Shown: positions 8,680 to 35,429 of the stretch, in pieces | Layout: every line of letters begins with the position of its first letter | How positions within the stretch are numbered: position 1 is the first letter of the stretch | Assembly (NCBI GenBank): GCA_963799845.1 | Contig: CAWCYI010000007.1 | Coordinates: 1-64,000, forward strand | Length of the DNA: 64,000 bases | Reading direction: 5' to 3' | Source: an uncultured Nitrososphaerota archaeon | Lineage (GTDB): Archaea > Thermoproteota > Nitrososphaeria > Nitrososphaerales > CADDZS01 | Notes under the pieces: model-generated | The model's database searches: none | Told to the model about the DNA's origin: nothing | What the model saw: the letters and a program-made list of their open reading frames with translations, nothing else | Made by a program: the position numbers and the translations under genes

Positions 8680-8795
8680 TGTCGTAAGCGAACAGCCGTC
8701 TGCTTTAGTAGTTTAAGGTCGTGGAAGCAGGGGAGATTTGCTGCTAGTTTCCTCATAATTTGGGCAATTTTTCTTCCCCTTCAGAACCCTATAGC

Positions 8796-8846
8796 GGTGC
8801 AAATCCCATCCCCTCCACACCTACCTAGGTTCTTATTTACACCTCC
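8796..8846 (+). other. attL-like site: tRNA 3'-end-like fragment (core CCATCCCCTCCAC, 8806-8818) plus arm
   Basis: GGTGCAAATCCCATCCCCTCCAC resembles a T-loop plus acceptor strand; arm 8815-8846 is an inverted copy of the motifs at 26340 and 51918; lies 3 bp before the integrase ATG. Confidence 0.7.
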
Positions 8847-8849
8847 AAA

Positions 8850-10036
8850 ATGACTTCTAGCCTGATGCAGGCTGGCGCCATAGCGGAACCGACTCTAAAT
8901 ATTCCCCAGGAAGAGGAGGCTGTAACGATGTTCAAAGCGGGCCATCGGTCTCCTCAAACTCTCGACCACAACCAACGCTTCCTAAATTATTTCGTCAAAG
9001 CCTTCCTGAAAATGTCCTCACAGGAATTTGTGGATAGAACCCGGCATGATTTGAAATGGGGAGAGGCGAGGAATGCAGCGTACTTCATCACGATCAAAGG
9101 CCGCGTTCAACGGAAGGAAATCGAATCGGATAGTGTTCACAACTTCCGGGACCCGATCAAAATCCTGTGCGACATGAATGACCTCTCCCTTAATTGGAAG
9201 AGGTTGGATAAGATCCTCCCCGCCAGACGTCGCAAGGCATTCAAAGGAGTGGCTGCCCCAAAAGAAACTCTGCGAACACTTTGCTCGTATCCCGATAGGA
9301 GAATGAAGCCGATTGTTACGACGATGACAAGCGGAGGCCCTTCGCGTGGGTGTGTGGGACTACCTTTCTGTTGGTGATCTAGAACCGGCTTATCTGAATG
9401 GGAAGCTAGTCGAGGGAAAGCTGACGGTTTATCGTGGTGAACCCGAAGAATATCCCACTAGGATTTCTCTCGAGGCATATAATTTTTGGATGCAGAATTT
9501 TGATGAACGCAGACAGGCGGGGGAAGATGTCAAGCCGGACTGTCCGCTCGCTCGCGATCTCTGGACTGGTGACCGTACTGGAAAGGGCATTGCACGATTT
9601 CCAAAACGACTGAAGAGGTACTGGAGTGAAACGACTCTTGGAGGATGCGTGGGGGGCCTTTCCCAATTTACGAAAAAAGAAACCCGGCACGAAGAAGTAC
9701 GACATCAAAGCAACCCACTTTGGTAGGAAATACTTCGAGACTGGGGCGCTGAAAGCTGGGCTCGAGCCCTGGCAAATCAAAATTTTCCGAGGTGACATCC
9801 TCCCAACTGATCTTGGCTACGAGGGCTTTACAGAGGAAGAATTGACTGCCCTTCACCTGAAAGCCGACCCAGAGCTCGTCATCTTCGATTCTCTGGTACC
9901 AGATTCCGGGGAAGTCGAAGACCTTCGAAAAGAGGTTGGGAGTCTAAAGGAGAAACTCAATCGGAATGAGGAGCTAATGCAGCAGGTCCTTGCGAAGCTC
10001 AAAGAGTCGGAACAAGAACGAGAGAAGGGAAATTAG
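8850..10036 (+). CDS. Tyrosine recombinase/integrase, two frameshifts (ORFs 8850-9377, 9346-9726, 9626-10036)
   Basis: MTSGG.R(+fs)GVWDYL; KLTVYRGEPEEY; ATHFGRKYFET (HxxR); C-terminal Tyr region and coiled-coil tail. Confidence 0.85.
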
Positions 10037-10463
10037 TCAGAGTAGCACTTGTTGATAGAATATACATTTACGTAAAGCTGCCTTCGAAGGAGATTATTTT
10101 GCATAAATGACGCAATACAAAATGCTCCTATTTTTGAACCGAGATAGGAGCGATCCCGAAAGGATTCGCTATGCCATGATCGGGCCACTGTCAGGCAGAT
10201 TTTGTGAAATTATAAGTAACGACATGCACTCCGAGCGGAGTTCTTGTAGAACTTTGTTAGAGTTCTGACCAAGTAGTCTTTACTCTCCAGGAACTCTTTC
10301 GCAAGTTCGGTAGTAGGATCTGCCATGATCGGAACGGTTAACAGAGGACCTAAAAAAGATGTGGTTGGAGAGAAGTTGTTGTAGGTCTCTCACTCAACGC
10401 ATTGAAAGCCATGACCTCAGTTTGGCAAATCGTAATAAGTATCATCGAATTCTAATGTTCTAT

Positions 10464-10560
10464 ATGCGATTAGATTATTTTCGGGTCAAAAATCTTCTTT
10501 CATTTTCAGAAAATGGTGCGGAGATTGGTGGTTTCGATAATTACAATGTGATAGTAGTCC
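10464..10560 (+). pseudogene. N-terminal remnant of an AAA/OLD-like ATPase
   Basis: MRLDYFRVKNLLSF...FDNYNVIV; homology ends just before the expected Walker A. Confidence 0.45.
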
Positions 10561-11686
10561 AATTTACTGGCGACTGCCAGAACGGCTTGATCGATATCCC
10601 GCCCTCTTCTAGGACATTTCAGGGGTTTTTTCTAAAATGTCCTATCTATGAGAAAACCTCCCATAATCATCTCACTCTCACGAAAGAGTACAATCGAAGT
10701 TTGTCACAGATCTACCAAACTAGATTTATCTGGAATTACACCAATTGACTTTTGTTGTCATTTACACCATACTTAGAAAGTGATGAAATGGAACGATCAC
10801 ATTAGGTAATGCAAAATGCACCAATGCCGACAATGGCATTATAGTAAGAGGTACTTCTAAGACTAACTGTTCCATTCATTACTTTTCTTAAACTCGGTAA
10901 AAACTTGTCAAGGTCAGTTTGCTCCAATTTTGGACTGAATAGGGTTGAGGAAAATTAGCACTAAAATTGGTTGTTCCATTCATCGCTTTCTGATTAGGAA
11001 TCTGCTTTTTGAAAATACAACACACAGGAAGAATCCCAGCACAGTTATGCAAGAATCCGACACCTGGCAACCTCCTATTTTGGAGGCTGGGAAGATAAGA
11101 AAAGTTAAGCCGGTTTAGATCAGGAACAATTTTTGTAGAGGGTTCCTGATCGTAACGTCTACTTCGATTTTTTTCTTTTGATTTTAGGAAATTTATCGAG
11201 CACGAGATTAGGAGCTTCGCCACGAATTATTCCTTGGAGACTTTGGAGAAATGCAAGCGTGGTCCTTTCGTCATATCCAAGATTTTGCGATATCCCCTTT
11301 AGAGTCCTGGGCCTCCGCATCCTGTTTATCTTACTCTTTATCCACTTCAATGTGTCTTCACTGAAAATGTAATCACCGAGAACATCGAATTTGTTATTCG
11401 CGAACTCCGCGATCTTCTCTGGTGGAATCCCAGACACTTGAGATAATTCCTGCAGCGAGACAAAGTAACCGATCTCACCAAACGGCAGTGGGTTCCTCTT
11501 TTTCTCGTCTGAAGATTCTCACCTCTCTTCATTGTTCTTGGCGAATCGTGCATTCAAGCGCCCGTTGGCGGTCTCCATTTTTTTCGGATTTCTTTGTTTA
11601 GCCCACAAGTAAGAGACTATGCTGTTGAGGCATTCGGCATAGGAATTATAGAAAGCGGGATAACCATACTTTTAGCGCGCGCGCGC

Positions 11687-11938
11687 GGATTATCCGGGGC
11701 CTTCCAAATGGGGTTCAGCCACGGGATCTTTTGCGTGGGCTGTTGCTGGGCCTATATGCTAGTCATGCTTGCCGTAGGGGCTATGGGTATTCCGATAATG
11801 GCGGCTCTAACCGGAATGATTGCTCTAGAAAAAGTGGTGGTGCGCGGATCCGTCTGGTTTACGAGGATCGTTGCAATTGGGTTCATTGCCTTAGGAGTTC
11901 TAGTAGGATTGTTTCCGGTTCTCCTGTCGTACCTCTAG
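11687..11938 (+). pseudogene. C-terminal fragment of DUF2182 metal-binding membrane protein
   Basis: GAFQMGFSHGIFCVGCCWAYMLVMLAVGAM...ALEK; N-terminus absent. Confidence 0.75.
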
Positions 11939-11985
11939 GTTTCCATTTCCTAATCCAAATTCTCGTTACGGGTTTGGGATTGGGC

Positions 11986-12040
11986 TTACTAGTAAATTGG
12001 GGTTCAAATCCCACATTTCGCCCATGGAATTTACTGGTAA
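11986..12040 (+). repeat. 55-bp hairpin repeat copy A
   Basis: TTACTAGTAAATTGGGGTTCAAATCCCACATTTCGCCCATGGAATTTACTGGTAA. Confidence 0.75.
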
Positions 12041-12183
12041 GAAATCTCTCTACTAAAAGCAATACTTGCAAAGAAAAACAAGATGTGGATGGACCATCCA
12101 ACCGCTTTGATTTCTATCACCTGCAACGCCTCCTTTTTCAAAATGATATAATAGGCAGAGAACATTTGTAGAATCCCTAACGA

Positions 12184-13528
12184 ATGATCGTCCCCGAGAC
12201 AAAGTACGCTAAGATAGACGATGTCCACATCGCCTACCAAATCTTCGGAAGTGGTTCGATTCCTGTGGTTGTGGCCCCCGGCTGGACGTCACATATTGAA
12301 TATGCTTGGGAGGAACCCTCTTACGCACACTTCCTCGAGCGATTAGGATCCTTTGCGCGTGTGGCCTGGTTTGACAAGAGGGGAAACAGGCCTCTCTGAC
12401 AAAGTGAAGGATCTTCCAACACTTGAACAGAGGATGGACGACATTAGGGCAGTAATGCAAGCTGTGGGATTCGAGAAAGCAGCTGTGTTCGGGATCAGCG
12501 AGGGTGGTTCGATGTGCGCATTGTTTGCCGCAACCTATCCTCAGAGGACGACAGCGTTGATACTTTATGGCGCGTTCGCAAAAAGGCTTTGGAGCGAAGA
12601 TTACCCGTGGGCTCCAACTCTGGAAGAAAGGGAAAAGTGGATCGAGAGTCTAGAGAGCGGGTGGGGCGGGCCGGTGGAGATTTCCGATTTGGCTCCATCC
12701 GTCGCACATGAAGAACATTTCGTGAAGTGGTTCACAACCTACGGAAGGTTGAGCGCCAGCCCTTCGGCAGCGGTAGCACTCGCAAGGATGAACACTTACA
12801 TCGACATACGAAACGTCCTACCTTCCATCCATGTGCCGACCCTTGTTATGCATCGGAGAGGAGACAGGGACTCCAGTGTCGAAAACGGCAAGTATCTTTC
12901 ACAAAACATTCCGGGAGCCAAATTCGTCGAACTAGAGGGCGAAGATCATATCCCTTGGGTGGGAGACTCAAATGCAATCGTCGACCAAATCGAAGAATTT
13001 CTTACAGGTATGAGATCGGAGAACTCGTCAGATCTGAACGAAAGAGTACTTGCTACAATTCTTCTAACTGATATTGTGGGTTCAACTGAAAAGGCAAACC
13101 AGCTTGGCGACAAAGGCTGGAAGAGTTTGATCACTAAGCACAACGAGATAATACGAAAGGAGCTCGAACGTTTCAACGGGAGGGAAATAAAATCAACCGG
13201 CGATGGATTTCTTCTGACGTTCGACGGCCCCGCTCGCGCCATCAAGTGCGCCTGTTCAGTCCGGGACAGGATTCGTAGTCAATTGGGAATTTCGATAAGA
13301 GCAGGGATACATACGGGTGAGTGCGAATTGATCGGCGAGAATGACATTGGTGGAATGGCCGTCCACATAGCTTCGAGGGTTGAATCGTTTGCAAAGCAAG
13401 ACGAAGTTTTGGTGTCGAATACGGTCAAAGATCTCGTTTCCGGCTCCGGGATAAAATTTAGCGATCTTGGCTTGCACACTTTGAAGGGGATACCAGAGCA
13501 GTGGAGGCTGCTCAAGGTCTTGAATTGA
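12184..13528 (+). CDS. Alpha/beta hydrolase - class III adenylate/guanylate cyclase fusion (LipJ-like), frameshift near 12380
   Basis: HIAYQ, FDKRG(TG)LSD, GISEGG; ATILLTDIVGST, TGDGFL, RAGIHTGECE, VHIASRV. Confidence 0.9.
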
Positions 13529-13920
13529 AAGTGGGATCCTACTTTATTCATTGAGTTTTCTTGTTTTATTCTTCTTGGCACAGCGAACATTTTTCGTCTT
13601 GTACTTCTTATTTGCAGAGTCCTTTCTCATCCGGAATAATGACGCCGCTACCGCTACAGTACTACTTCTTGTTCCTGTTTCCGATATATTCCGAGCTTTA
13701 ACCATGACACTTTTGTTCCAACGGATTGTACACAGGTATAAATAGAACTACGTCATGGGGGAACGAAACGTGCCAGGGGGTAGATTTCATAATGATAAAT
13801 TTTGACAGCCTTGTGATCCTTGTGATCGGAGTCGGCGGCCTTGTTATCGGCAGTGGCGGTTTGGTCTACGTTATCAAAAAACAGCAACGCAGCCAGATGG
13901 AGAGGTGAAAGGTCGATAAA

Positions 13921-14422
13921 ATGAAGATAATTCTAACGAGAACGGTTTTGATTCTTGCCCTTGTAATGATGCTCTCGGGGAGTCTTGTAACGTACGCTGC
14001 AACCACCCTTTTCACGCAAACGTTCCCAGCTGAAACGTTTGCCACTGCTTCCCTAAACGTAGGATCGAAATGCAGCGGCGGGGACCTGGTCCTAGTGCCG
14101 GCAGATAGTACCGTTCCAAACTCAGCAGGTCAGTATGCAGCTCTTGAGTTTGCGTGCGACAGCACAGGTGACGCGGCATTCACTAGTACCTGGGACGACA
14201 AGTACTACTGTGACAGTCACTCCGACATTTACTCTTCCAAGTGGGTGGAATTTCTTTGTCGGTCCACAGAATTCTCCCACCACAATTGCTTGCTCAAACG
14301 TGGAGTATGAGCCCACTAGCGGGTCTCCAGTGACTCTGACAGGCGGCACCTCCTACGCGTACTGTCTAACTTCAACAAGCGCCTCCAGTTTCAGCTCGTT
14401 CACCGTAACTTGGTCGCAGTAA
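13921..14422 (+). CDS. Secreted Cys-containing protein, frameshift near 14190
   Basis: Signal peptide; paralog of 14580..15128 (PTF.LP.GW, YCLT.TSASSFS.F...WS). Confidence 0.65.
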
Positions 14423-14579
14423 ATCCCCTTCGAGTCGTTGAGAATTACGACGATGAAGCTCCAGCTTTTCTTTGGGCTTCAGGGATAATTTAGCTGACAT
14501 CAGCGATTTGTCACATGCAGCTATATATCACAGAATCTGACTTTGAATTCCATACGCAAGAATCCCCACGAAGTACCGA

Positions 14580-15128
14580 TTGGCGGTGAAAAGCAAGATG
14601 CTTGTAAAAAGAAGCCTGTTGGTGGTTTTCGTATTTACGATGATTTTGGGATTATCTCTTGAAGTTTTTGTTTTTTCAAATTCTCCCATGCTTCTATCCA
14701 GCTTTGCAGCTTCTGATCAGATAGTCTACAACTCTATGCCGAGTGCTTCTTCACCTCCGCAATTGTTGAGCGGATGTAGTCGTATGACATTGAACGTCCA
14801 TCAAAGTAAGATTCCTTCTTTTTCAGGCAGACCGGCTGTCCTGGTCTTCGGGTGCGGACGAGGCGGCAATCTTCCGGCCCTTTTGACGGTTGGCTCGCGA
14901 CATAGCTCACTCACGTTTGTTCCGACCTTTAGCTTGCCCTTTGGCTGGAGTCTCGGAATTGCAAGAGTACAACCTTCGATGGAGTGTTCCTCTTCTTCAC
15001 CTAGCCGGCTGCTCGAGTTAACAAGCGGAGGACCGGCAACATTGACCCCTCTGACTCAATATATCTATTGTCTCACAGCAACAAGCGCTTCGAGCTTTTC
15101 GACCTTTTCAATTGCCTGGTCCAGCTAG
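14580..15128 (+). CDS. Secreted protein, paralog of the upstream gene
   Basis: N-terminal hydrophobic segment; shared C-terminal motifs. Confidence 0.65.
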   Translation: MAVKSKMLVKRSLLVVFVFTMILGLSLEVFVFSNSPMLLSSFAASDQIVYNSMPSASSPPQLLSGCSRMTLNVHQSKIPSFSGRPAVLVFGCGRGGNLPALLTVGSRHSSLTFVPTFSLPFGWSLGIARVQPSMECSSSSPSRLLELTSGGPATLTPLTQYIYCLTATSASSFSTFSIAWSS

Positions 15129-15442
15129 AATGCTCTAAAGAAGATCAAAAAGCGTTGGCCAAATTTGGCTGATCTTTATCTTTGGCTGGGCCTTGTTAGC
15201 GGCAGCTTTGACAGCGGTACCCGAGTTCTCTTCTTGGGCTACAGCCCAATCTATATGGTCCATGTAAACCTTTTTAAAATTGGTATCGTTGTAGTTGAAG
15301 AGCGTCAATTACCTGAAAACCCTTCTACTTCCCTGGAAGATTTCCTAACTGCGAACAGTTAATGGTACGCCTGTCTTCCTCAGAGCTATTGAACCGCCAT
15401 CTAATACCATATTCTCTTCGGTAGACTTGTATTGGTTTATAG

Positions 15443-16567
15443 CTAGTGCCGTGTCCATAAAGGTCGTCTGAGTTTCCTCCTCCCATCCTTTCTTCTTGCT
15501 TGCGTATCTCTGAACCTTTTGCCTCTTGCCCTCCTTTCGATGTTACGATAGCTCACTGCTTTTTGGAAAGCTCTTCCAACCTCATCCCAGCTCTTGTAAT
15601 TGGTTCCGCTCAAGGCAAGCTTCTGTATGTCGCCCGTGTGGCACTCGACAGGATTCATCCAGCTCGCATTCGTCGCTGTTGGAACGAGTGCTGTATTGGT
15701 GGAATGAGCCCATCTTCGAATGTCAGGAGTCCAGTGAGCTCTAAAACCGTCCTGTATCATGTACACCCTTTCATCAAGAGGATATTTTGATCTCTCGCCT
15801 TTCAAGAACTCTAGCCACGGTTTTCCTCCCTTGTGAGCATACTGATCTATGCTCAAGCGCTGGTGGTAGACGTTCAGGCAAACGTATTCGTATCTCGCAC
15901 CTCCAAACTTGTTGTAGTTTGCTGGAATCCTTTCTGGGGCGGATTGCTCAAACCATCCTCTTCCTCCATGAGGAACGAGATTGAACGGACCCATCTCATC
16001 GAGGCTAAGTACCACGGGAGGATTCGATTTCTTTCGCGTCAATCGCTCTATGCGAGCTTTCTTTTTCTCAAATTCAGGATCTTGTGATTCCTTCCACGTC
16101 TTCACGCTCTGGAAGCTGATGTCTGACTCATCCAGTATTATTCGGAGCCATTCCTTGCTGATCGAATCCACTAGCCCCCTCTTCTCAGCCTCGGTCTTTA
16201 GACGACGCAGGCTCCACTGCTGGAATGGCAGTCCGAGATTCTTGGGCTGACTCGTTGCAAGAGAGACGAGCTTTGCCTTCTGTTCGGGAGTGAATTTCCT
16301 GTTTCCTCCAGGCTTCCAGTGAGGCTTCAGCATCGCCAGCCCTTCCTCATTGAAAGATTTGATCAACGACCTAACATAATCCTGACTCATCATCACAATC
16401 TCTCCTATCTTTGGAGGAGTGAATCCCTGAGCGCTAGAAAGTACGACCTGAGCTCTTCTCATCTCTATTGGATCCTTGCCGTAACGTCCTATCTGTCTGA
16501 GCTTGTTCCCCTCCTCATTCGTTATGCTGCGAACATGGACTACCATGTTCGAAGACGAACATGACAT
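15443..16567 (-). CDS. IS630-family transposase
   Basis: HTH N-terminus, WSLRRL, SLDEMGP, IQDGFRAH, ASWMNPVE (DDE); stop codon uses the target TA. Confidence 0.92.
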   Translation of the reverse strand: MSCSSSNMVVHVRSITNEEGNKLRQIGRYGKDPIEMRRAQVVLSSAQGFTPPKIGEIVMMSQDYVRSLIKSFNEEGLAMLKPHWKPGGNRKFTPEQKAKLVSLATSQPKNLGLPFQQWSLRRLKTEAEKRGLVDSISKEWLRIILDESDISFQSVKTWKESQDPEFEKKKARIERLTRKKSNPPVVLSLDEMGPFNLVPHGGRGWFEQSAPERIPANYNKFGGARYEYVCLNVYHQRLSIDQYAHKGGKPWLEFLKGERSKYPLDERVYMIQDGFRAHWTPDIRRWAHSTNTALVPTATNASWMNPVECHTGDIQKLALSGTNYKSWDEVGRAFQKAVSYRNIERRARGKRFRDTQARRKDGRRKLRRPLWTRH

Positions 16568-16618
16568 GGCCTTAAATCTTCGCGTAAAAATCTAGAACAA
16601 GCTATCTGGCCGCGGCAC
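15446..16618 (-). mobile_element. IS630-family insertion sequence
   Basis: Ends GTGCCGTGTCCATA and (reverse complement) GTGCCGCGGCCAGA, flanked by a TA duplication in an AGCTAGCT target. Confidence 0.9.
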
Positions 16619-17501
16619 TAGCTTTATGATACCTGCTCTAAAATTGGAGACGAAAATCCCTTCGTTTGTATCCTTGACAAAAACCTGAGCTATTTGTTCA
16701 GTGGAATGTGAAAAAGAAGAACTAGGTCTCTGAAAATAAGATCTTGGGCGCGGTTAGAACTAAAGGGTTAGTATTTCAAGCAAATTGAATTGAAAATGAG
16801 TATTTTTTAGGGCACGACTACGATGATTTTCATTGAAAGTACACTCTCCAATTATGTCGAAGCCTCGTTGCGGCAGCAAAAGAGCGGAAAGAACGTGAAG
16901 GATTTGACAATCCGAAGTACTCTTCGCTATATATTAACCGCGACTATTATGAAACTTGGGAAGCCAGAGAGTTCTAACCAACTTGAAATACTTCTCGGCA
17001 GCTAAACTCGAGGAAATTTTGCCAAGCAGTCTTTACCTAGTCACTCTCCGCTCCCAAGTACAATTACGAGCCTTCTGTTCGATACTCATTCAAGTGTTAT
17101 TCCAATCTTTTCTTGAACAGACAATTTGTCGATCAAGATAACCCCAAACTCTTCTCAATATTCTGGAATGAAATTTCATTTATCAGCATTATGGGTTCGA
17201 TATTGAAATGTCAGAGCATGATGAGCCTCGATGTTGCGAATATTACGGCAGGGAAATCGAGAGCGATAGAAAAAACTACAAAATTTTGAAGTGTAAAACA
17301 TCAACAAGCAGCTTCCAGAAGAAATACTTCAAGCTGACTCGAGAATAGGGGTAAGGAGAACAGACTTAATCCTCTGTAATTTGGAAATGAATAGCTGAAA
17401 TTCAGACGAAGATCTTCCCAAGCTATACCCGCTAGAGGATCGATGTGCACCTCCGAGCCCATTTGCTGTTGCTTTTGAGCGGACTTTAGGGCGTTGGATT
17501 C

Positions 17502-18462
17502 TTATGCATCCAGATCGGTTTGAATGCGTGGCTTGGCGCTCAATTTCGGCACATCCTCAATATGTTTCTCCAGACATTCAATGAGGACCCTTGGTTGATG
17601 GACATGCCCAACCACAATTTCAATACGACACTGCATCACACCGTCGATTTGTCTGACATTTTCAGTAAGTTCCTTCAATAGGGTTACATTTGGCAGAATC
17701 AGGCTGCACATGCCAACGATGTCGAAAAGTGCTCCAAATATGAGGTAATCTTTCACGAGCTCAAGGACTTTGGGTTCGGCAGATGCCCTGGTTCTATTAT
17801 TTGCAAAAAAGATTAGAAGATCCGCTGGGACAGATCCCGACATCGCCCCATAATTTACATCGGCGAGGGAAACGATCATATTCTCTCGTGCAATTTTGGA
17901 TATTCTCCTCACGACCGATCGCGTCGAGATATTGAGACTTCTTCCTCAGCTCAGCATAACTAACCAATCCGTTGGTCGAAGACTGCAACATTAATCGAGC
18001 ATCAGATTGTGTAAAGGAATCTGGACAGGGTGGGAAGGGAATCCTACTAAGGGTCCCCTTGGGACCTGCGATCTTCCTTAGAGTACCAAGCTTTCTCTCA
18101 AGGTCTTCCTCATCTCTAAATACAAAAGTCAGCCATGCCATGCTTCCCAAAAAATCATGTGCACTAAGAAATCCATCGAAATCCTTGAGTTTTTGGAAGA
18201 CTTCTCCTTTGTCAAGTTCTGGAGGAATATCCACTGTATACGCTGCGGACATGAATTTGAATAGGTTGGGGTTAGGAAACGATAACGACCCCTTCACCAC
18301 TCCGATTTTGTACATCGTGTTGATCCTGTTCCGAACAGTGCCGAGAGAAATCCCGAGCTTCCTGGAAACATCCCGGTAGGAAGGTGAAAAGCCGGGCTTT
18401 CCGGGGAGGATTAGTCCACCTTGGTTAAGCTCCCTTATTATGGCGACGTCGATCTTGTCCAT
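17502..18462 (-). CDS. Lrp/AsnC-family transcriptional regulator (double HTH), frameshift near 17920
   Basis: MDKIDVAIIREL...SYRDVSRKLGISLGTVRNRINTM; second HTH spans the frameshift. Confidence 0.8.
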
Positions 18463-18585
18463 TTAGACTCGCCGGCCTCGAGATTTAGTTCTCAGAGCTT
18501 CAAAAACTTTGGCACTTTTGTTCAGTCCTTCTATACACACGTTTAAATAGTTCTCAGCTTTCCCCCCTACAGTCCGAAGTACAAC

Positions 18586-20082
18586 TTGTCTTATCCATCG
18601 GGTAAAATTATCGCGAGTGTTGCAGTTCTAGTTGTCTTTTTAGTCTCAGGAGTTCTTGCCAGTCCAAGGGCGTACGCGTTTGCAAGCGGGCAACCCGCGG
18701 CGATTGTTATCGGTTTCAACAATTTTACAACGAAAAATGCCAGTATTCCACCGACTCAAACCAGTCTCTATAGCCCAGGATCTATTGCATTTGATTCGAC
18801 TGGTAACATGTGGGTAGCTGATACATCAAACTCAAGGATACTAGAATTCAAGTCACCGTTTTCCAGCGGTGAAGGTGCAAGCATTGTCCTGGGTTATTCA
18901 AGTTTCGATGTTTCAGCTCTGAGTACGCCAAACTCGACTGACTTGTTTACTCCAGAAGGGATTGCTTTCGATCCATCGGGCAACCTCTGGGTCTCGGACC
19001 AGACATTCAATAGGGTCGTGGAATTCAAGGCACCGTTTTCGGACGGCGAAAATGAAAGTGTCGTCATAGGTCAGCCGACGTTCACGACTGAAAGCAGTCC
19101 TGACGCTACTGCAAACTCCACCATTCTCAATTCACCATCAGGCCTAGCATTTGATCCATCAGGTAATCTCTGGGTCTCAGATGACGGCTGGGACCGAGTA
19201 CTCGAGTTCAAAGCACCATTGACTACTTACGAGGCCGCGAGCACAGTTATCGGTCAGACAAACTTCACCTCAGGAGTTCAAGACATTCCTGGATGTCCCC
19301 AAAATTGCGCGGCGCTTACCTCTCCCAATAGTTTGAACGATCCCAGGGCGATCACCTTCGATTCATCCGGAAACCTCTGGGTCGCTGATTCGCACGGCGG
19401 CAGGGTCTTGAAGTTCAATGCACCAGTCTCAACCGGTGAAAGTGCGAGTGTCGCTCTTGGTGTCCCAGATCTCAATCATTTGGCAGCGTTTGGTTGTGTC
19501 GAAGGCGGCCCTAACTGTATTTCCCTACCGGATTCCCTCGCCTTCGATAAATCCGGGAACTTGTGGGTATCGGACGACCCCGCAGGAAGGGTGCTGGAGT
19601 ACACATCCCCTCAATCTACTGCCGAGAATGCGTCATTGGCCATCGGACAGCCAAATACCACGATCATAAACGGCGCCGGAATCTTTAACGTAACGCAATC
19701 AGACATGATAGGAAATGACGGAGTCGTGATAGATCCTTCTGGAAACCTATGGGTGAGTGATGGTGGGGATAATCGCGTGCTTGAATTCTTATCAACTGTA
19801 CAGGGAAGTGCGACTACCAGTTCTTCGGCAACTCCGGCAACTTCGACGGCTAGCTCTTCGGTGACTTCTCCGGCTTCATCTGTATCGAGCATCACTGCTT
19901 CGATTTCGATACCCAGTACATCTTTGCAACAATCATCTACACACTCTACGACAAGCATCGTAGTAACATCTTCGAGCAGCAACTCCTCTACGTCAATTTC
20001 CCTGAACTACCTCGCGGTAGTCGCAGTTGTATTGTTCGTGATGGCCACCACGTTCATCGTGCTGCGAAGACAGCGAAAGTAG
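18586..20082 (+). CDS. Secreted NHL-repeat beta-propeller surface protein with Ser/Thr linker and C-terminal TM anchor
   Basis: Repeated P.GIAFD.SGNLWVSD..NRVLEF; basic tail RRQRK. Confidence 0.9.
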   Translation: MSYPSGKIIASVAVLVVFLVSGVLASPRAYAFASGQPAAIVIGFNNFTTKNASIPPTQTSLYSPGSIAFDSTGNMWVADTSNSRILEFKSPFSSGEGASIVLGYSSFDVSALSTPNSTDLFTPEGIAFDPSGNLWVSDQTFNRVVEFKAPFSDGENESVVIGQPTFTTESSPDATANSTILNSPSGLAFDPSGNLWVSDDGWDRVLEFKAPLTTYEAASTVIGQTNFTSGVQDIPGCPQNCAALTSPNSLNDPRAITFDSSGNLWVADSHGGRVLKFNAPVSTGESASVALGVPDLNHLAAFGCVEGGPNCISLPDSLAFDKSGNLWVSDDPAGRVLEYTSPQSTAENASLAIGQPNTTIINGAGIFNVTQSDMIGNDGVVIDPSGNLWVSDGGDNRVLEFLSTVQGSATTSSSATPATSTASSSVTSPASSVSSITASISIPSTSLQQSSTHSTTSIVVTSSSSNSSTSISLNYLAVVAVVLFVMATTFIVLRRQRK

Positions 20083-20463
20083 ATCAGGATTCTTTCAAAA
20101 AACGGTACCTGACCAGAATCAGGACTGCGTCTGTAACAATTAGTGCAACGCCCGGATAAACGAGCGCTTTTGCCCTAAAGACCCGCTCGAAGAAAAATAA
20201 TTTTAGACGATTTAGAAGGGCAAGAGCGAGTTATCGATGTTTCGCTCCCCTACATCTGGGTCGGTAAATGGGGAGCTGTAGGAATTCGCAAAGAACTCGG
20301 AGATCAATTCTGGGTTCACTCGAAGAAACAGACTCGCAGAACTTCCGAAAGCGAGAAAATCGAAAGCGCGGTCGGAACAACTTTCTCCGGTAAAGACTGG
20401 GGGATTTGTTTCGTCCATGACGTAATGATGGGAAAAGAGAGATTCGAAGGTATCCTGGCATTT

Positions 20464-20518
20464 TTACTAGTAAATTCGCGCGGGGGTCCCACGTTCCGCA
20501 CTCGGGATTTACTAGTAA
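20464..20518 (+). repeat. 55-bp hairpin repeat copy B (best conserved)
   Basis: TTACTAGTAAATTCGCGCGGGGGTCCCACGTTCCGCACTCGGGATTTACTAGTAA. Confidence 0.9.
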
Positions 20519-20652
20519 CGAACATTGAACATTGAGACACGATCCAAAGAGGCATATTTAGCATTCTCGTCTTAATGTTCCTTGACAAAGCCAAAACGCT
20601 AGGGGAAGGGTTTAGCAACTTCCGAGGAGTTGTCCAACGTCCTTGAGACGTG

Positions 20653-21165
20653 TTACGCAGTTTTCTGAGAGTTCTGGGATGGAATCTTGGCAAAGTCGTT
20701 GCTACGTTGCAGGGCCCTCATGAGATTGTCGATGTCCGGAGGAGGTACGCGAGGTCGACGAATTTCCAAGTCGAACCACACGCCCTCAGATATCACGGCA
20801 GCCAATTCATCGTTAGCAATGTTGCGAAATGTATTCCTCACCCGAAATCGCACTCCATCGTCGGACAGACCTACCACCTCATAGCTCACTGTGAACTCAT
20901 CCATAAGTCGCAACTCTTTACGGTAAACAAGCTCGTCGCGCATCATGACCGGGGCGAACTTTTCGGAGGCAAAACGCTCAACAGTGAAGCCGTGTTCTGC
21001 AAAGAAAAGAATGCGCGTATTGTGGGCGTGGTCGAGGTAAGAAGTGTTGCCCATGTGCATGTTGCCATCCAAGTCGCTCCAGCCCACGCGAAATCGCTGC
21101 TCGAAGCGGATGGTCTTAGGCGACAACCTCTCGAGCTCCTTCGACGGCCTTTCTTGACTGTTCAT
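20653..21165 (-). CDS. Acyl-CoA thioesterase (4HBT/hotdog fold)
   Basis: VGWSDLDGNMHMGNTSYLD; GVWFDLEIRRP. Confidence 0.85.
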   Translation of the reverse strand: MNSQERPSKELERLSPKTIRFEQRFRVGWSDLDGNMHMGNTSYLDHAHNTRILFFAEHGFTVERFASEKFAPVMMRDELVYRKELRLMDEFTVSYEVVGLSDDGVRFRVRNTFRNIANDELAAVISEGVWFDLEIRRPRVPPPDIDNLMRALQRSNDFAKIPSQNSQKTA

Positions 21166-21273
21166 TGCTTCGCCTGTCCGCTTTCAGTTTTATCTAAATC
21201 TCGCGGGGAATTCGGAGAAGTAGGTCGGAACTCCCAGATCGTTATGTCCGTTAGTGGCAACCGGGCGTAATTC

Positions 21274-21294
21274 TACTAATAACGAACATTGAAC
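21274..21294 (+). repeat. Partial repeat end, direct repeat of 20510-20530
   Basis: TACTAATAACGAACATTGAAC vs TACTAGTAACGAACATTGAAC (20/21). Confidence 0.75.
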
Positions 21295-21431
21295 GATCAA
21301 TTTGGTGTGATTCTTCACTCTCAGAATGAATTCTCTGCGTTTTGTTTGATCTCCTAATTTTTTCCAGAGAATCTTAACTATAGTTTTTTTCCCTTGCTAA
21401 TTTAAATCAATATACTTTCTATATCTTTGAT

Positions 21432-22178
21432 GTGAGCGAGACGACATCAACTCGAGAGTTACAATCATCATCCATTGTCGAATTGCGGCAGTACACCCTG
21501 CGTCCGGGGAAACGTGATGTATTGATCGAACTCTTTGAACGATATTTTATTGATCCTCAGGAAGAAATGGGAGCAGAATTAATCGGCCAATTCCGCGATC
21601 TTGAGAATCCAGATCGGTTCGTGTGGTTGAGAGGCTTTCCCGATATGTTAGTTCGAAGAAAGATGCTTGAAGAATTTTACACTAGCCCTATCTGGAAAGC
21701 ACATCGAGAAGAAGCCAACGCCACCATGATGGACTCTGACAATGTTTTACTTTTGCGTACAGCCTGGTCGGGGTCTGGATTCTCACTGGGGCATCGTAAG
21801 ATTGTCGGATTAGATCAATCCAAATCGAGTCTTGTGACCGCAACGATTTGCTACTTTGACTCCCCTCCAAAAAACGAATTCTTTGTATTCTTCAAAGGGA
21901 CATTGCTACCAATACTAGTGCGATATGGTGCACCATGTCTTGCTACTTTTGTCACCGAATCCAGCCCCAATAACTATCCAAGACTAGCAGTGAGAGAAGG
22001 AGAATACGTGTTTGTCTGGTTCAGCTTATTTACAAACGGAACATCTTACGAGAATCACATTCGAGCTTTGGAAGAAAGTTCTGACTGGTTAAAGATCCAA
22101 GTTCAACTTAAGGAATTCTTGATCAAGCCGGTAGAGATCTTGAAGCTTTCACCGACTCCGCGTTCAAAGCTAATCTAA
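21432..22178 (+). CDS. NIPSNAP-family protein
   Basis: IVELRQYTLRPGKRD...GQFRDLENPDRFVWLRGF...LSPTPRS. Confidence 0.9.
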   Translation: MSETTSTRELQSSSIVELRQYTLRPGKRDVLIELFERYFIDPQEEMGAELIGQFRDLENPDRFVWLRGFPDMLVRRKMLEEFYTSPIWKAHREEANATMMDSDNVLLLRTAWSGSGFSLGHRKIVGLDQSKSSLVTATICYFDSPPKNEFFVFFKGTLLPILVRYGAPCLATFVTESSPNNYPRLAVREGEYVFVWFSLFTNGTSYENHIRALEESSDWLKIQVQLKEFLIKPVEILKLSPTPRSKLI

Positions 22179-22186
22179 CTCTAATG

Positions 22187-22312
22187 CTACTAGTAAATAC
22201 GTGCGCGAATCCCGTTACTCAACCGAGTTATGATTTTGTGGATTTACAATAGGGGTTGCATTTTTACTAGTAAATTCGTGCGGGGGTCCCACATCTCGCA
22301 CTCGGGATTTGC
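22187..22312 (+). repeat. Hairpin repeat copies C (degenerate, 22187) and D (22264)
   Basis: CTACTAGTAAATACGTGCGCGAATCCC; TTACTAGTAAATTCGTGCGGGGGTCCCACATCTCGCACTCGGGATTT. Confidence 0.85.
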
Positions 22313-22486
22313 TTACCCTACTGTTCAAACTTTTTTATGAGTGCCAAGATATTGGGTTCTAGTCTACAACCCAAAAATAAACGAGACCTTGAATTGCCCT
22401 AGGAGAAACTATCTCTGTCAATCAGCACTGATTCATACGTAGAACCATTTGCGTTTAAGTTACGGTCTGGATAGTCCCTTCAGCTT

Positions 22487-23203
22487 CTACGGAGGGAGTC
22501 CCACCTTCTCGCAAAATTCTGTGAATCTCGGGTCTTCCCACAACCCCTCGAAGAAGGGGTCGAACTTGATCAAAAACCACCAGGAATGAAACTCTACCTC
22601 TTTCATAAGAGCCTCAAACGCCTCATCGAGGTCCCCCATCGACGTCCTTATCCACACCTGAGCGTCGCGACGGTTCGATTCATTTTCATCCGCCATCAGA
22701 GCTCGTAGTTCATCTTTCGCCTCCCCCCTTCTTCCCACTAGGGCGTACATCATTCCCCGCGCTACTCTCAGCCAATAATTGTCGGGATATATTTTCAGAC
22801 CCTCACTCAGTATCTCGCCGGCTCTGGTGAAATCCTTTGTCTGTAGATAGCAAAACGCAGTTTGGAGATAGATTACTGGATTTGACCTGTCGCGTCCTTT
22901 GAACCTTTTCACAACGTGTAATGCTTCGTCTACTTTCCCTTCTGCCCTCAGGATGTTGGTCAATACACGCATGGGGCCCGGGTTAAGTGGATCTAAGTAG
23001 CACGCCTTCTGAGGGTAATTGACAGCCTTGTCGAATCTGCCGAAAGTAGCGTGGTGAACGGCCAGGTCCTGATTTGCCCAAGCCAGGTTCGGGTTGATCC
23101 GAATCGCCTTCTCGAGCTCAAGCCGCGATTCCTCGAATCTATCCATGGCTTCATGTACAGTGTCCTTGTTCGCCGATCTGTTTTTCCTGATTCGATGGTT
23201 CAT
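22487..23203 (-). pseudogene. TPR-repeat C-terminal fragment (adenylate cyclase/TolB-TPR type)
   Basis: TPR helices ending KFDPFFEGLWEDPRFTEFCEKVGL; N-terminus looks unrelated. Confidence 0.65.
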
Positions 23204-23501
23204 GGATTTGCGCTTTAGGTGTCTCGACGATTTCTTGATTTGTGTCAGGCGAGGACTTTCTTTGTCTGATTGTTTTGGGATCGGAAATTCTAAACCGCAT
23301 CACTTCGCCGCCTCGTCCGCGTTCTCCTGAGAAGTATCTCATCTCAACAAGCTTGCTTTTCAAGAGGTCTTGCAGTTCTTCCCCGAGATGTCCGGGACTG
23401 CTACCGTAGAGGGTCTTTGCGGGAATTTCAGTCCCCTGCGCGATCTGGACCACGCTTCTCCATCCGCACTTGTCGAGCGGTACTCTTCGATACCTCGTCA
23501 T
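23151..23501 (-). pseudogene. Fragment of an archaeal winged-helix-like protein
   Basis: LVEMRYFSGERGRGGEVMRFRI motif; appears truncated. Confidence 0.4.
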
Positions 23502-23872
23502 CCTTCACATAGACAGCCTTCAGAAATTCAAATAGTCGCTTTGACTTTGAATCTCTGAATTCTTCCAAGCCGCGTCCTTCTGCAAATGGCATGCAAGGTA
23601 TAAAAAAAGTTAAGCAGAATTATCGCCAGAAAAGCCCCTTTCGATGTCGCTGTTTGAGAGCAGAGACCAAGGCGAGAACATTCTCGAAAAACCGAATCAG
23701 TATTTCCGAAAAGGCGGTTACATTTAGTTGAATTCCACAGGTTTTCGGTGCTGCAACTCGCAGTAGAATCGACTTTTCTATTGTGTTGATGAGCCGGGAT
23801 ACGAACTAAGAGGTACTAAGAGTTAGAATTGGATCAAGCGAGGTCCAAATCCCATCCACATTTAACAATTTT

Positions 23873-23919
23873 TTACTAGTAAATTCGTGCGGGGGTCCCT
23901 CATTCGACACTTGGGATTA
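23873..23919 (+). repeat. Hairpin repeat copy E
   Basis: TTACTAGTAAATTCGTGCGGGGGTCCCTCATTCGACACTTGGGATT. Confidence 0.85.
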
Positions 23920-24145
23920 TTCCTTAACGGATTTTATTAGTAAAAAGGTGAGCACAAGGCAGTTTTGCCTAGCAGCAGATTTTCGAGACAATCTCAGTGA
24001 ACCTCCCGTTAGGCTGTGGGAGACCCAGAAGGATATTCAAGGAAGAGATCGAATGTAAATCAAAAATAACTCCTGCTGGATTCGAATCAAACTTACAGCA
24101 AAAGAATGGAGCAAATGCCTAGTCTTCTAAGATTTCGCGACTTGG

Positions 24146-24430
24146 TCAGGAGCCAAAAAAGCGAGAAAGAAAGATAGCTGAGCTTCCTTCTAAGACTTCA
24201 AATGTTTCTGAAGGAAGCAAACCGTGGGCATCCTTGTGAGCTTTTGATATTGCATCCTTATTTGGCGCGTGGGATAGGCAGAATATTGTTCCTTCCTTTT
24301 CATCAAGCCAGTACTTCTCGAATTCGACGCCGTACTTTCCTTGCACTTTAAGATCCTTGGCGTGAGCTTCTGCGACATCTTTGAGTTTGACACCCTTCAT
24401 GTTTTTGTGTACATCAATATACTTGGGCAT
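24146..24430 (-). CDS. DUF4242 (SCO4226-like nickel-binding) protein
   Basis: MPKYIDVH...AEAHAKDLKVQGKYGV...YWLDE..GTIFCL..APN...AHKDAHG. Confidence 0.9.
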   Translation of the reverse strand: MPKYIDVHKNMKGVKLKDVAEAHAKDLKVQGKYGVEFEKYWLDEKEGTIFCLSHAPNKDAISKAHKDAHGLLPSETFEVLEGSSAIFLSRFFGS

Positions 24431-24676
24431 TGATTCGTGCTCGTTATTAATCTGGTTTTTATAGATTCCTTTGGCCTCGCTCTTGGTTAGGGTACAGAGA
24501 TAAATCCAACCGAATCAATATGAATAATCACCAGATTTGTTCGTCTGTTTCATGAATCTCGAATAGCCAACAATTGCTCCCAAGGAGATCCGTTTGAAAT
24601 GCTCGATCTTTTCATTTTATTTTCGTTATCCTTACGAGAGACAATGGAACACGTGGATAATCCTTGGCCAACCCCA

Positions 24677-24731
24677 TTTCATGTAAATTCTTTTTCAAAT
24701 CCCACATTCCGCACTCGGGATTTACTAGTAA
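24677..24731 (+). repeat. Hairpin repeat copy F (plus partial copy near 24799-24820)
   Basis: TTTCATGTAAATTCTTTTTCAAATCCCACATTCCGCACTCGGGATTTACTAGTAA. Confidence 0.85.
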
Positions 24732-24925
24732 AGACGTGTCCGAGTTCAGTTACTTACTTGAGTTCTAGATCTGCGGATTTGCAAAGGTAGTTGTATTTTT
24801 TACTCGTAAATTTGGGTCCTGATGACAAACGAGCTTTCGCCCAACCAGATTATCGTCATTGATAATCGTGTTTGGAATTTAAGTACGAGCCGTTTGTTAC
24901 ATCTTTTAGAGATTAAATAGAATTG

Positions 24926-25768
24926 ATGAACGAGGGCTCCCGAGACTAGATATACCAGGACTAACGAAAACAGAGCAAACTCTCAAACAGTTGAAGACTC
25001 TTGGAAAGGACTCTACCGAATTGGCGGATATGCTGCCCTAATGGCTTTGGCGATCGGTACTGATTGAGGGTATCGCAGATTTCATCATTCAGATTGTCTG
25101 GTTGAACTCGGGGAGTTACGGGGCTAGTTCCGGTCTGCAACCCAGCACCGTAATCGGATGGTTCCAGCTGTTTCAGAACAATCGGCTCGCAGGACTCATC
25201 GACGGTGCTGTCTTGGATATTGCAGTTGTCGTCCTCTTGGCCCCCATATTCGTTGCCCTCTTTGCTGCCCTCAGACGAGCCAATGAAGCCTGGGTAGCAA
25301 TATCTACGTCCCTCGCCTTCGTAGGCATTGCTGCTTACATACCAACCAACACGGCCTTTTCTTTGCTTTACGTCAGCGACCAGTACGCGGCTGCGTCCAC
25401 GGATGCTCCTCTTGGCAGCAGGCCAGGCGACAATCGCCGCGGGTGGGAACGGCCTGGTTGAGAGCAAGGGGTTCATTCTCGTTGCCGTGGCCGGCCTGAT
25501 CGTCGCAGTGGTCATGCGCAGGAGCAAGATCTTCGGCAGAGCGACCTCGTGGGTCGGGGTCTTTGCGAATGGGCTCCTCATTGCGAATTACGTCTGCCTT
25601 GCCTTCATATCGGCGGCATCCGACTTCTCAACGGGCCTTTTCGCTGCTGCCTCGATTTTGGTGTTCATATGGTGGCTCTTGATTGCCCGCAAACTACTTC
25701 AGCTTGGACGGGGTGCCTCTAAGAGAGACAGGGTGAAATTGGAATCCCCGCGAGGTGCCGTCAGCTGA
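24926..25768 (+). CDS. DUF4386-like membrane protein, frameshifted
   Basis: WKGLYRIGG, WFQLFQNNRLAGL, SLLYVSDQYAAAST, LLAAGQA, IFGRATSWVG across frames. Confidence 0.65.
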
Positions 25769-25872
25769 CGCGACCCTTCGTTCATTAGATACAGGCTCGG
25801 CGCGCAACTAGGCAATTAGTCTGAGGTCAAGTGGTGGCTTCGGTCGAATTTGAACCTGTTTGATTAAGGTGA

Positions 25873-25897
25873 ATTTTACTAGTAAGCCCAAACCCAA
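25873..25897 (-). repeat. Inverted partial repeat copy G
   Basis: TTTACTAGTAAGCCCAAACCCAA closely matches the reverse complement of the left flank and end of copy A. Confidence 0.65.
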
Positions 25898-26236
25898 TAA
25901 CAATTTCCAACTGCACTATTGTAAGGAAATCTACAAGCACTAGAATAGATGCAATTGAAGTAAGCGCAGTGAAAAGTAATAGATTTACGAGATCCGTGCT
26001 CACGCTTACAAATAACAATAACATCGAAATACAGAGCGCTGAGCAAAAATTTGAACGCTCAAAAAAAAGAGGGCGAACAAAAGCGCCTAACTATTCGAAC
26101 CGGAGCACTGGTCGCTACTAAATAAAGTTGCCTTTTCAAAATCTTTTTGGAATCCAAAATACAATGAAAATGCTTTGTGAAAAAATAGAAATGTGATTAA
26201 TGAAAGCGAATGCCCCAGATGTTCGGACGTCAAGTT

Positions 26237-26291
26237 TTACTGGTAAATTCGTGCGGGGGTCCCACATTCCACACTCGGAGTGTGTTACCAA
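26237..26291 (+). repeat. Hairpin repeat copy H
   Basis: TTACTGGTAAATTCGTGCGGGGGTCCCACATTCCACACTCGG. Confidence 0.85.
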
Positions 26292-26339
26292 ACACCTCTC
26301 TGACATAATCCTGTGCACTAATCTCAGAATTTTTTGTTT

Positions 26340-26410
26340 GGAGGTAACATGATGAACCTAACTAGGTGTGGATACCATCCCCTCATACGAACATACGTAG
26401 GTTCCTGTTT
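26340..26410 (+). other. att junction between modules 1 and 2
   Basis: GGAGGTAACATGATGAACCTAACTAGGTGTGGATA-CCATCCCCTC, followed by a degenerate left arm ACATACGTAGGTTCCTGTTT. Confidence 0.75.
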
Positions 26411-35383: not shown

Positions 35384-35429
35384 GGAGGTAACAAAAAGAA
35401 CCCAATCAGGGCTGAATCCCATCCCATCC
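35384..35429 (+). other. att-like right end of module 2
   Basis: GGAGGTAACAAAAAGAACCCAATCAGGGCTGAATC-CCATCCCATCC; core starts 35 bp after GGAGG as in the other copies. Confidence 0.65.

Follow-up and report, generated by a model that had tools for sequence, protein, structure and literature searches.

What separates the unrelated single genes that follow one another near the start of contig CAWCYI010000007.1 of an uncultured Nitrososphaerota archaeon (GenBank assembly GCA_963799845.1), and does the separator play a part in moving them? We analysed the first 64,000 nt of this contig (C7:1-64000 in our numbering; hereafter the window) together with the whole genome (G000), which comprises 4.6 Mb (4,603,561 bp) in 9 contigs. 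A preliminary description of the window had reported a 55-bp repeat with hairpin potential and had proposed that its copies are recombination sites analogous to integron attC or dif, a MITE (miniature inverted-repeat transposable element) or REP (repetitive extragenic palindromic) family being the alternative. Here we show that the repeat is a mosaic built around one short palindrome, that it is confined largely to accessory islands and keeps one orientation within them, and that the modules between its copies have different neighbours and orientations in different genomes. We tentatively read it as a recombination joint for accessory modules, used mainly by general recombination in the manner of the NIME/dRS3 repeats of Neisseria, and we rate this reading at a little below an even chance.

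The window contains seven exact occurrences of the 10-mer palindrome TTACTAGTAA (starting at 11986, 20464, 20509, 22264, 23873, 24722 and 25876), against 0.02 expected, and none of 100 shuffled windows reached seven. A repeat search of the window returned a 56-nt family with six copies. An nhmmer profile, built from the window copies, iterated once on the whole genome and applied at E<0.01, is the source of all copy counts given below; it reported seven window copies, all on the plus strand (11974-12052, 20451-20532, the partial 22183-22213, 22248-22314, 23866-23934, 24680-24745 and 26225-26301), and 63 non-overlapping copies genome-wide. Genome-wide there are 58 exact palindromes, every one of them in the neighbourhood of repeat copies. 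The family is thus real, as first described, with palindrome statistics, profile and repeat search in agreement, and six of the regions initially listed (11986, 20464, 22264, 23873, 24677 and 26237) do hold copies. Three others do not: 22187 is the start of a different, companion module; the supposed inverted copy at 25873 is a lone palindrome at 25876 followed by the short module GCCCAAACCCA, an arrangement mirrored at 11966-11995; and 51864 shares only the 17-nt stretch GCGGGGTCCCACGTTCC and goes unreported by the profile at the threshold used. The revised array, in which A denotes the repeat proper and B, C and E its companion modules, reads as follows.

11966-11995, minus strand: palindrome with companion module E, GCCCAATCCCA (motif scan).
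11974-12052, plus strand: repeat copy A, TTCAAATCCC variant, with two palindromes (11986 exact, 12031 with one mismatch); nhmmer E=4e-15, hairpin z -2.67.
20451-20532, plus strand: full repeat copy A with two exact palindromes (20464, 20509); nhmmer E=3e-19, hairpin z -2.9 on the plus and -4.4 on the minus strand.
22187-22263, plus strand: companion module B, the palindrome-like CTACTAGTAA followed by ATACGTGCGCGAATCCCGT, about 45 variable nt and GGGGTTGCATTTTT; matches of 116-133 nt at 79-85% identity at 5 other loci.
22248-22314, plus strand: repeat copy A with a degenerate right palindrome; nhmmer E=2e-19.
23753-23865, plus strand: companion module C, an upstream extension ending in AATCCCATCCACATTTAACAATTTTTT; matches of 128-159 nt at 78-84% at C6:1024363, C6:1021773 and C4:735359.
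23866-23946, plus strand: long repeat variant A', its right palindrome about 20 nt further out (23934); nhmmer E=1e-13, fold z -2.2.
24680-24745, plus strand: repeat copy A, left end degenerate, right palindrome exact at 24722; nhmmer E=5e-13.
24722-24809, plus strand: second copy of module B, 72% identical to 22188-22265 (repeat search).
25876-25901, plus strand: lone exact palindrome followed by GCCCAAACCCA (module E); exact match, motif scan.
26225-26301, plus strand: repeat copy A without a right palindrome, the last of the array; nhmmer E=5e-15.

Full copies have the form TTTTTACTAGTAAATTCGTGCGGGGGTCCCACATYYCGCACTCGGGATTTACTAGTAA: a palindrome (TTTACTAGTAAA), about 12 variable nt, the core TCCCACATYYCGCAC and, usually, a second palindrome as closure, so that both ends are palindromic 10- to 14-mers forming terminal inverted repeats, as in a MITE. 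The segment between palindrome and core occurs in interchangeable forms (GTGCGGGGG, GGGGTTCAAA, GTGCTCAAA and GTGCGCGAA), in the long form A' the right palindrome lies about 20 nt further out, and truncated and composite forms occur. Modules B (palindrome, ATACGTGYSCGAATCCCGT, about 45 variable nt, GGGGTTGCATTTTT), C (an upstream extension ending in AATCCCANCCTAATTTGRCAATTTTTT) and E (palindrome plus GCCCAAACCCA, with about 12 genomic copies, all abutting a palindrome in a motif scan) recur beside the repeat copies. Since one and the same palindrome delimits A, B, C and E alike, the joints are mosaics, with short blocks threaded on it. On the strand opposite to the TTACTAGTAA+GCCCAAACCCA motif (about 12 sites, including 25876-25901 and 11966-11995 in the window, C6:911749 and C6:1035271) we observed that a conserved C-terminus, ...WVWAY, could be encoded, with a TAG stop inside the palindrome; the corresponding open reading frames (ORFs) would be small, hydrophobic and otherwise unrelated.

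A single strand of the repeat can, according to folding predictions, form a bulged hairpin. As the preliminary description had it, the palindromic ends of full copies pair into a long hairpin with extra bases on one side, a 3-nt bulge on the 3' arm (z -2.7 to -6.4); truncated copies lacking that fold gave z -1.2 to -1.5. In an alignment of 50 copies from this genome and its relatives, the long hairpin paired in 69.9% of cells, against 36-47% when the partner column was slid. The same alignment gave no covariation: 486-498 of 500 column shuffles reached the observed values, compensatory changes were fewer than in the shuffles, and an alternative short hairpin likewise showed no covariation. Because shuffled columns do as well, the inverted repeat is a property of the consensus sequence and not a fold kept by compensatory evolution. 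The most conserved parts were the left palindrome together with the TCCCACAT..C.C core; 15 columns reached at least 90%. At 25 of the 58 exact sites the palindrome is extended to T5 or A5. No Rfam model matched the 11-27 kb part of the window at E<=1.

The genomic distribution of the repeat is far from even. With genes taken from a crude codon-usage caller, 62 of the 63 copies lie outside confident genes, while intergenic DNA makes up 24% of the genome. Ten multi-copy islands, together 268,694 of 4,603,561 bp (5.8%), hold 56 of the 63 copies, which is not an even spread. Another copy lies within 10 kb for 76% of copies, compared with 27% for random intergenic placement (maximum 43% in 300 trials). 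The orientation is ordered as well: among successive copies less than 20 kb apart, 37 lie on the same strand and 5 on opposite strands, so that the copies are, as initially claimed, intergenic and mostly co-oriented. The polarity is set island by island: it flips no fewer than 3 times along C4 and no fewer than 4 times along C6. Given these flips and the lack of a usable GC skew, a replication-strand rule for polarity is unlikely. Of 46 gaps within islands, 6 are shorter than 150 nt (tandem modules), 19 span 0.6-2.5 kb, 9 span 2.5-6 kb and 12 are longer, the longer ones often containing insertion sequences (ISs). The 54 host regions are convergent in 21 cases, divergent in 12 and tandem in 21; copies thus sit at gene ends and gene starts alike, with convergent regions in excess (21/54 against 18% of all intergenic regions).

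We searched for the repeat in 12 relatives from the same family and 28 genomes from other families of the order (these counts include one unpublished genome, G001, which had no repeat match and on which none of our conclusions depends). A strict 26-nt pattern with up to 3 mismatches was present in 4 of the 12 family relatives and none of the 28 others; a looser pattern was present in 7 of the 12. Variants carrying TCCCACCY occurred in three other families (6 copies in G043, 2 each in G051 and G107, 1 each in G115 and G061), the G043 copies including a co-oriented cluster of 4 on one contig, while single looser-pattern matches elsewhere were at the level of a reversed-pattern control. BLAST with one island also found copies in G004, G005, G006, G007, G010 and G011. 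The profile confirmed 5 of 6 loci in genome contigs and, in metagenomes, 30 of 32. Copies shared one orientation at each of the 11 metagenome loci with more than one copy and, among relatives, on 7 of the 8 contigs with more than one copy; on the eighth, G002:C177, a partial copy of 30 nt lies on the opposite strand. These matches show that the repeat sequence is conserved across genera and families. Contigs of relatives (G043:C16, C24 and C8) and many metagenome loci often end within about 1 kb or less of a repeat copy, which suggests that the repeats are a common cause of assembly breaks in metagenome-assembled genomes (MAGs) of Nitrososphaerales.

Between the copies in the window lie small genes with little in common. 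The preliminary description had named most of them correctly; its DUF4386 protein corresponds to an ORF for which we found no Pfam family.

12353-13528, plus strand: alpha/beta-hydrolase with an adenylate/guanylate cyclase domain (Pfam PF00211, PF00561).
18586-20082, plus strand: NHL-repeat protein (Pfam PF01436).
20653-21165, minus strand: 4HBT_2 thioesterase (Pfam PF13279, E=1.9e-17).
21432-22178, plus strand: NIPSNAP protein (Pfam).
22487-23203, minus strand: TPR protein (Pfam).
24146-24430, minus strand: SCO4226-like protein (Pfam PF14026, E=9e-21), which we take to be the family formerly named DUF4242.
24961-25581, minus strand: ORF without a Pfam match (Pfam search), the supposed DUF4386 gene.

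Several of these genes have paralogues of 72-77% identity beside repeats elsewhere in the genome; those of the 24961-25581 ORF, for instance, are at C4:1970863-1971597 and C6:900666-900904 (blastn, 72-73%). The 3' half of the NIPSNAP gene together with the initial 28 nt of module B (384 nt in all, 21832-22215) has a 99.2% identical copy in another island (C4:1371607-1371990, blastn). Overall, the cargo comprises SDR, glyoxalase, RibD_C, DUF1801, SnoaL and DinB proteins, cupins, PIN/MazE pairs, methyltransferases, cyclase-TPR proteins, and ABC-2 and MFS transporters with small regulators, which is typical flexible-genome content.

Across the repeats, gene order is not conserved in relatives. 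In the island at C4:1369-1380 kb, no match from the 12 relatives crossed a repeat boundary, and homologues of its segments lie on different contigs; three individual cases carry more weight. One segment is a gene for a 102-residue Zn-ribbon protein (C4:1373524-1373832; L024:4525-4833) with weak zinc-finger Pfam matches only, situated between two palindromes. This cassette is 93% identical at the DNA level in G003 and G002 and 88-89% identical in G006, G007 and G010, and therefore spans two genera; it lies next to repeats in all five other genomes. The 30 other high-scoring segment pairs of at least 500 nt in the same contigs show 65-81% identity. In G007:C104 a single repeat separates the Zn-ribbon cassette from a gene of 371 codons. 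The genome studied here has homologues of that gene in two places: at 35739-36854 of the window, on another contig than the Zn-ribbon cassette, and at C4:1961285, some 590 kb distant from it. Likewise, a RibD_C gene between two plus-strand copies lies on the plus strand here and on the minus strand in G002:C28. These comparisons show that modules between repeat copies have different neighbours and orientations in different genomes. Larger blocks have been duplicated as well: 35761-37436 and 38122-42589 of the window correspond to C4:1961285-1962960 and C4:1964976-1969443 at 97% and 94% identity, the two C4 blocks being separated by repeats and a DUF1214 gene.

Where homology ends relative to the repeat varies. 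For the Zn-ribbon cassette it stops exactly at the start of the right palindrome in G003 and extends 22 nt into the next repeat in G002; other breakpoints lie 28 nt into the repeat or 26-107 nt outside it, and the overall range is 0-110 nt from palindromes. In three DNA sequencing runs of one study, the sole repeat-related back-joint connected position 26279 to 25870 with 13 extra letters and probably represents another genomic locus.

One enzyme demonstrably uses the palindrome. An IS110-family element of 1206 bp outside the window, here called IS-X, is present at C6:903700-904905 (L029:6701-7906), at C6:961378-962586 and, interrupted, at C4:1954607-1957756; each of the three copies has its transposase broken into two ORFs, at the same position. 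The copies are bounded by TTTACTAG...AGTAAA and lie within or between repeat copies in either orientation, and a related right end abuts a repeat in G002:C28. IS-X thus inserts at the palindrome centre (TTTACT-AG-TAAA) with AG repeated at both junctions; that is, it occupies one position in a specific sequence with a short core repeated on both sides, as IS110/IS1111 elements do. In its 3' non-coding end, an internal loop that a small hairpin caps has GAAUUUACU on one side and UUUACUAG on the other; GAATTTACT and TTTACTAG likewise lie on its two sides, and the loop matches the palindromic target. This is the layout expected of the guide loop of a bridge or seek RNA, and we regard the loop as a candidate for one; the fold has a z of only -1.6 and no Rfam model matched apart from one chance hit. 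Islands contain 10 of the 15 IS110-family ORF fragments of the genome, and this family provides the only recombinase seen to use the palindrome as its site. The interruption of the C4 copy (C4:1954936-1956883; L027:9936-11884) is an insert of about 1.9 kb with an ORF of 398 codons that, by eye, looks like a group II intron reverse transcriptase (YADD-type motif).

Searches for a more conventional recombinase were negative. A search with the tyrosine recombinase family PF00589 yielded four weak matches genome-wide, scoring 36.6 to 19.7 bits. All of them lie outside the islands, and the two whose contigs bear islands (C4:2115564 and C7:200823) are separated from the closest island by over 140 kb. 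No serine recombinase matched in the genome, whose completeness is 87%. Surveys of the 43 ORFs of the window, of 126 ORFs in islands and of 130 located near repeats on other contigs revealed no recombinase apart from IS transposases. Both Y1 transposase genes (PF01797) are part of an IS200/IS605-type element of 2.8 kb, of which there are two copies at 93% identity; as the ends of this element bear no relation to the repeat, we rejected it as a parent or as a REP-associated tyrosine transposase (RAYT). DUF123, the only GIY-YIG-like gene of the genome, is a single-copy island gene found in 1 of the 12 family relatives and 14 of the 28 other-family genomes; a distribution so anti-correlated with the repeats led us to dismiss it as a partner of the Ssn type. 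We also observed a Cas1-domain fragment (PF01867, E=2.5e-8) at C6:1748381-1748908 (L036:4381-4908), roughly 1 kb away from two repeat copies and close to where C6 ends, which is possibly a casposon remnant.

How would such a repeat act as a joint? Co-oriented copies would provide portable homology. A module between two copies could loop out as a circle retaining one copy, and this circle could insert again at any further copy, either within the same cell or following transfer, restoring direct repeats. Since loop-out and re-entry at direct repeats restore direct repeats, arrays would stay co-oriented and the polarity of each island would be preserved; and because breakpoints are scattered within and near the repeats, the general recombination machinery would be the most likely enzyme. 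Several observations weigh against this scheme. The 12-nt palindrome and the 8-nt core are nearly invariant across genera and even families, which general recombination alone leaves unexplained and which points to a specific protein or RNA partner or to active selfish spread. The homology of the window/C4 duplication, the one pair of 94-97% identity examined, ends 26-107 nt outside palindromes, so at least that event took place without crossover at the repeats. In G006:C58 a RibD_C homologue lacks surrounding repeats. Finding homologues on different contigs is weak evidence of lost synteny, because the relatives are fragmented MAGs that break at repeats; the gene calls are crude; and no recombination event was seen directly in the sequencing runs, which consist of low-depth contigs breaking at repeats. 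The conservation of palindrome and core itself suggests that they have an additional sequence-specific role, for example as a binding site or transcript end.

Competing explanations account for parts of this pattern. The repeat could be a selfish, non-autonomous MITE- or REP-like element that survives in permissive islands, the cassette appearance being a by-product. Terminal inverted repeats with hairpin potential, high identity between copies without compensatory changes (as expected of recent copies of a master), strictly intergenic placement, and truncated and composite forms would all fit; yet inspection by eye of seven full copies revealed no target-site duplication, a non-exhaustive search found no parent IS with the same ends, the Y1 transposases belong to an ordinary IS, and transposition would not be expected to produce clustering with island-wise co-orientation. 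Moreover, repeats flank the same cargo gene on either side in different genomes, and no case of presence or absence of the repeat alone was found. We consider a selfish origin unlikely, and in its classic form, a dispersed MITE or REP family with target-site duplications, RAYT and parent IS, the alternative offered in the preliminary description does not describe these copies. Slightly less likely still, in our judgment, is a dedicated site-specific cassette system resembling attC or pdif, whose recombinase would be of an unrecognised type or an IS110-type RNA-guided enzyme acting in trans and would cut at the palindrome to excise or insert modules. Such a system would explain why co-oriented sites are so often 0.6-2.5 kb apart (19 of 46 gaps), why the cargo resembles integron cassettes, why the G003 Zn-ribbon junction falls exactly at the palindrome start and why the site is conserved across families, and the palindrome is indeed the recombination site of one DEDD recombinase with a candidate GAAUUUACU/UUUACUAG loop. 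Against it stand the breakpoints, which do not fall at a fixed base, the lack of covariation, the occurrence of the IS110 element in only two genomes, and a search result limited to four weak tyrosine-recombinase matches outside the islands, no serine recombinase and, among all the ORFs surveyed, only IS transposases. Its most specific version, an integrase-free archaeal cassette system with exchange at TTTACT-AG-TAAA by a trans-acting RNA-guided IS110-type DEDD enzyme or another host enzyme, we hold to be quite improbable; if true, it would constitute an independently evolved functional analogue of the integron in Nitrososphaerales.

The remaining two proposals look to the signals carried by the repeat or to its ancestry. 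A cis-acting expression signal travelling with the genes (a bidirectional terminator or insulator, the operator of a dimeric regulator, or a small RNA) would draw on the T-runs on both strands with T5/A5 extensions at 25 of 58 palindromes, the excess of convergent regions and the conservation of primary sequence over long evolutionary distances. With 12 of 54 regions between gene starts and 21 between gene ends, neither a pure promoter or operator nor a pure terminator fits; no Rfam family matched, and island restriction and co-orientation would go unexplained. As the principal function we find this very doubtful, though it is not exclusive of the others. That the repeats are decayed attachment sites, fragments resembling tRNA 3' ends left by serial integration of mobile elements, appears to us highly improbable. 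Variant copies contain GGTTCAAATCCC, which resembles a tRNA T-arm, and direct repeats flanking foreign DNA are described as what integrases leave behind (PMC6563490). The T-arm-like stem, by inspection, pairs at 3 of 5 positions only, there is no nearby integrase, no tRNA 3' end matching the repeat was seen at the head of an array, and about 60 copies at single-gene spacing far exceed the remnants of serial integration. ARAGORN found no tRNA in the window, and its only island predictions genome-wide are two with introns of 1184 and 1443 nt, which are doubtful; a tRNA origin was accordingly rejected. The tRNA predictions of this genome are intron-rich in general, and an archaeal small-subunit rRNA fragment is present on C1.

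Set against known systems, a recombination joint of the kind we favour has its nearest counterpart, by analogy, in the Neisseria NIME/dRS3-NTS repeats, and it also appears close to REPs targeted by IS110-family elements. The Neisseria repeats are described as hairpin repeats around variable genes that are the target of a phage recombinase and have been proposed to supply recombination homology (PMC11893778). There, as here, a short palindrome frames variable short modules near variable genes and is the target of a recombinase, a likeness that is one of analogy only; the sequences are unrelated, the host here is an archaeon, our arrays are co-oriented and separate whole genes, and a GIY-YIG partner of the Ssn type is not evident, DUF123 being anti-correlated. 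The phage recombinase that acts at the Neisseria repeats belongs to the Piv/IS110 group. Several IS110-family elements, such as ISPpu9, ISPpu10 and IS621, target REPs and the bacterial interspersed mosaic elements (BIMEs) composed of them. More broadly, intergenic imperfect palindromes of the REP type are reported as insertion sites of IS110-family elements (PMC12288879). REPs differ in being dispersed in hundreds of copies, alternating in BIMEs and accompanied by a RAYT, whereas the present repeat has about 60 copies in 10 islands, is co-oriented and has no RAYT.

The likeness to integrons, which Ghaly et al. describe in archaea (10.1101/2022.02.06.479319), is one of arrangement. Like attC, the repeats are co-oriented imperfect-hairpin sites with unpaired bases between small unrelated accessory genes of similar cargo classes, and the order of modules in the arrays differs between genomes. 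Unlike attC arrays, they have no IntI-like gene near any of them, their sequence and not only their structure is conserved without covariation, breakpoints are imprecise, and the cargo has no fixed orientation (of 54 regions, 21 are convergent, 12 divergent and 21 tandem, and the same gene is inverted relative to the repeats in another genome). Integron sites too attract this transposase family, as IS1111-type elements target attC. Acinetobacter plasmids carry pdif (Xer) modules, units of one or a few genes between short sites that are reshuffled between replicons; pdif sites consist of two 11-bp arms and a 6-bp spacer and alternate in orientation. Discrete modules of one or a few genes bounded by short recombination-type sites are common to both, but by inspection the site described here is a palindrome that lacks a spacer and is embedded in a longer oriented repeat; we found neither two arms around a 6-8 bp spacer nor a link to Xer, and breakpoints range over 0-110 nt rather than falling on one base. 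The cassette picture drawn in the preliminary description, with intergenic, island-restricted, co-oriented repeats between unrelated small genes whose order is not conserved, thus holds, and none of the refuting outcomes listed there (even spread, target-site duplications, fixed gene order) was observed, whereas the attC-like and dif-like mechanisms it named are not supported. A full-text search for Nitrososphaera combined with repeat, MITE, IS110 and cassette topics gave no earlier description of the repeat among the papers listed. MITEs and IS110 go unmentioned in the main text of a survey of integrated elements in Thaumarchaeota (PMC6563490), where palindromic repeats appear only in the reference list.

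The long segment of the window between 12 and 20 kb contains a further mobile element.

15441-16625, minus strand: IS630-like IS (HTH_32/HTH_29, Pfam) with ends (GCTAGTGCCG...) unlike the repeat.

Its family name follows, by inference, from HTH and DDE_3 matches on its paralogues, and at least 5 other genomic copies share 88-99.7% identity; as a MITE parent it was discarded, its ends being unrelated to the repeat. Positions 8796-16621 duplicate C8:7821-1 at 98.4%. An IS66-family transposase at 29335-30747, in or next to the island, splits a BspA-type leucine-rich repeat gene (28700-29089 and 30720-31976). A small hairpin-containing family, TTTGGAGGTAACA..GAACCTA..TAGGTGTGGA..CCATCCCCTC, occurs at 8790-8850 (minus strand), 26336-26410, 35380-35430 and 51916-51980; two members follow a repeat copy or repeat-like stretch, a short-word BLAST search found no further genomic copy, and the family may correspond to the 'att ends' mentioned in the preliminary description, which no integrase in the vicinity corroborates. 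A separate repeat family of about 150 nt (63001-63152 of the window; L005:1789-1963) has about 45 copies across the genome's contigs at 76-97% identity and is also present in G003.

How accessory genes are taken up and reshuffled is poorly known in the soil archaea related to ammonia oxidisers, which are hard to grow. In one large genome of this group, almost every joint of the flexible gene pool bears the same conserved repeat, and the same island-wise polarity recurs in relatives and metagenomes. With the repeat as a simple sequence tag, flexible islands and mobile modules can be located in MAGs of Nitrososphaerales, and its palindrome is a natural target, with a candidate guide loop, of an archaeal IS110-type recombinase. 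These findings raise the question of whether Nitrososphaerales may exchange gene cassettes without an integrase.

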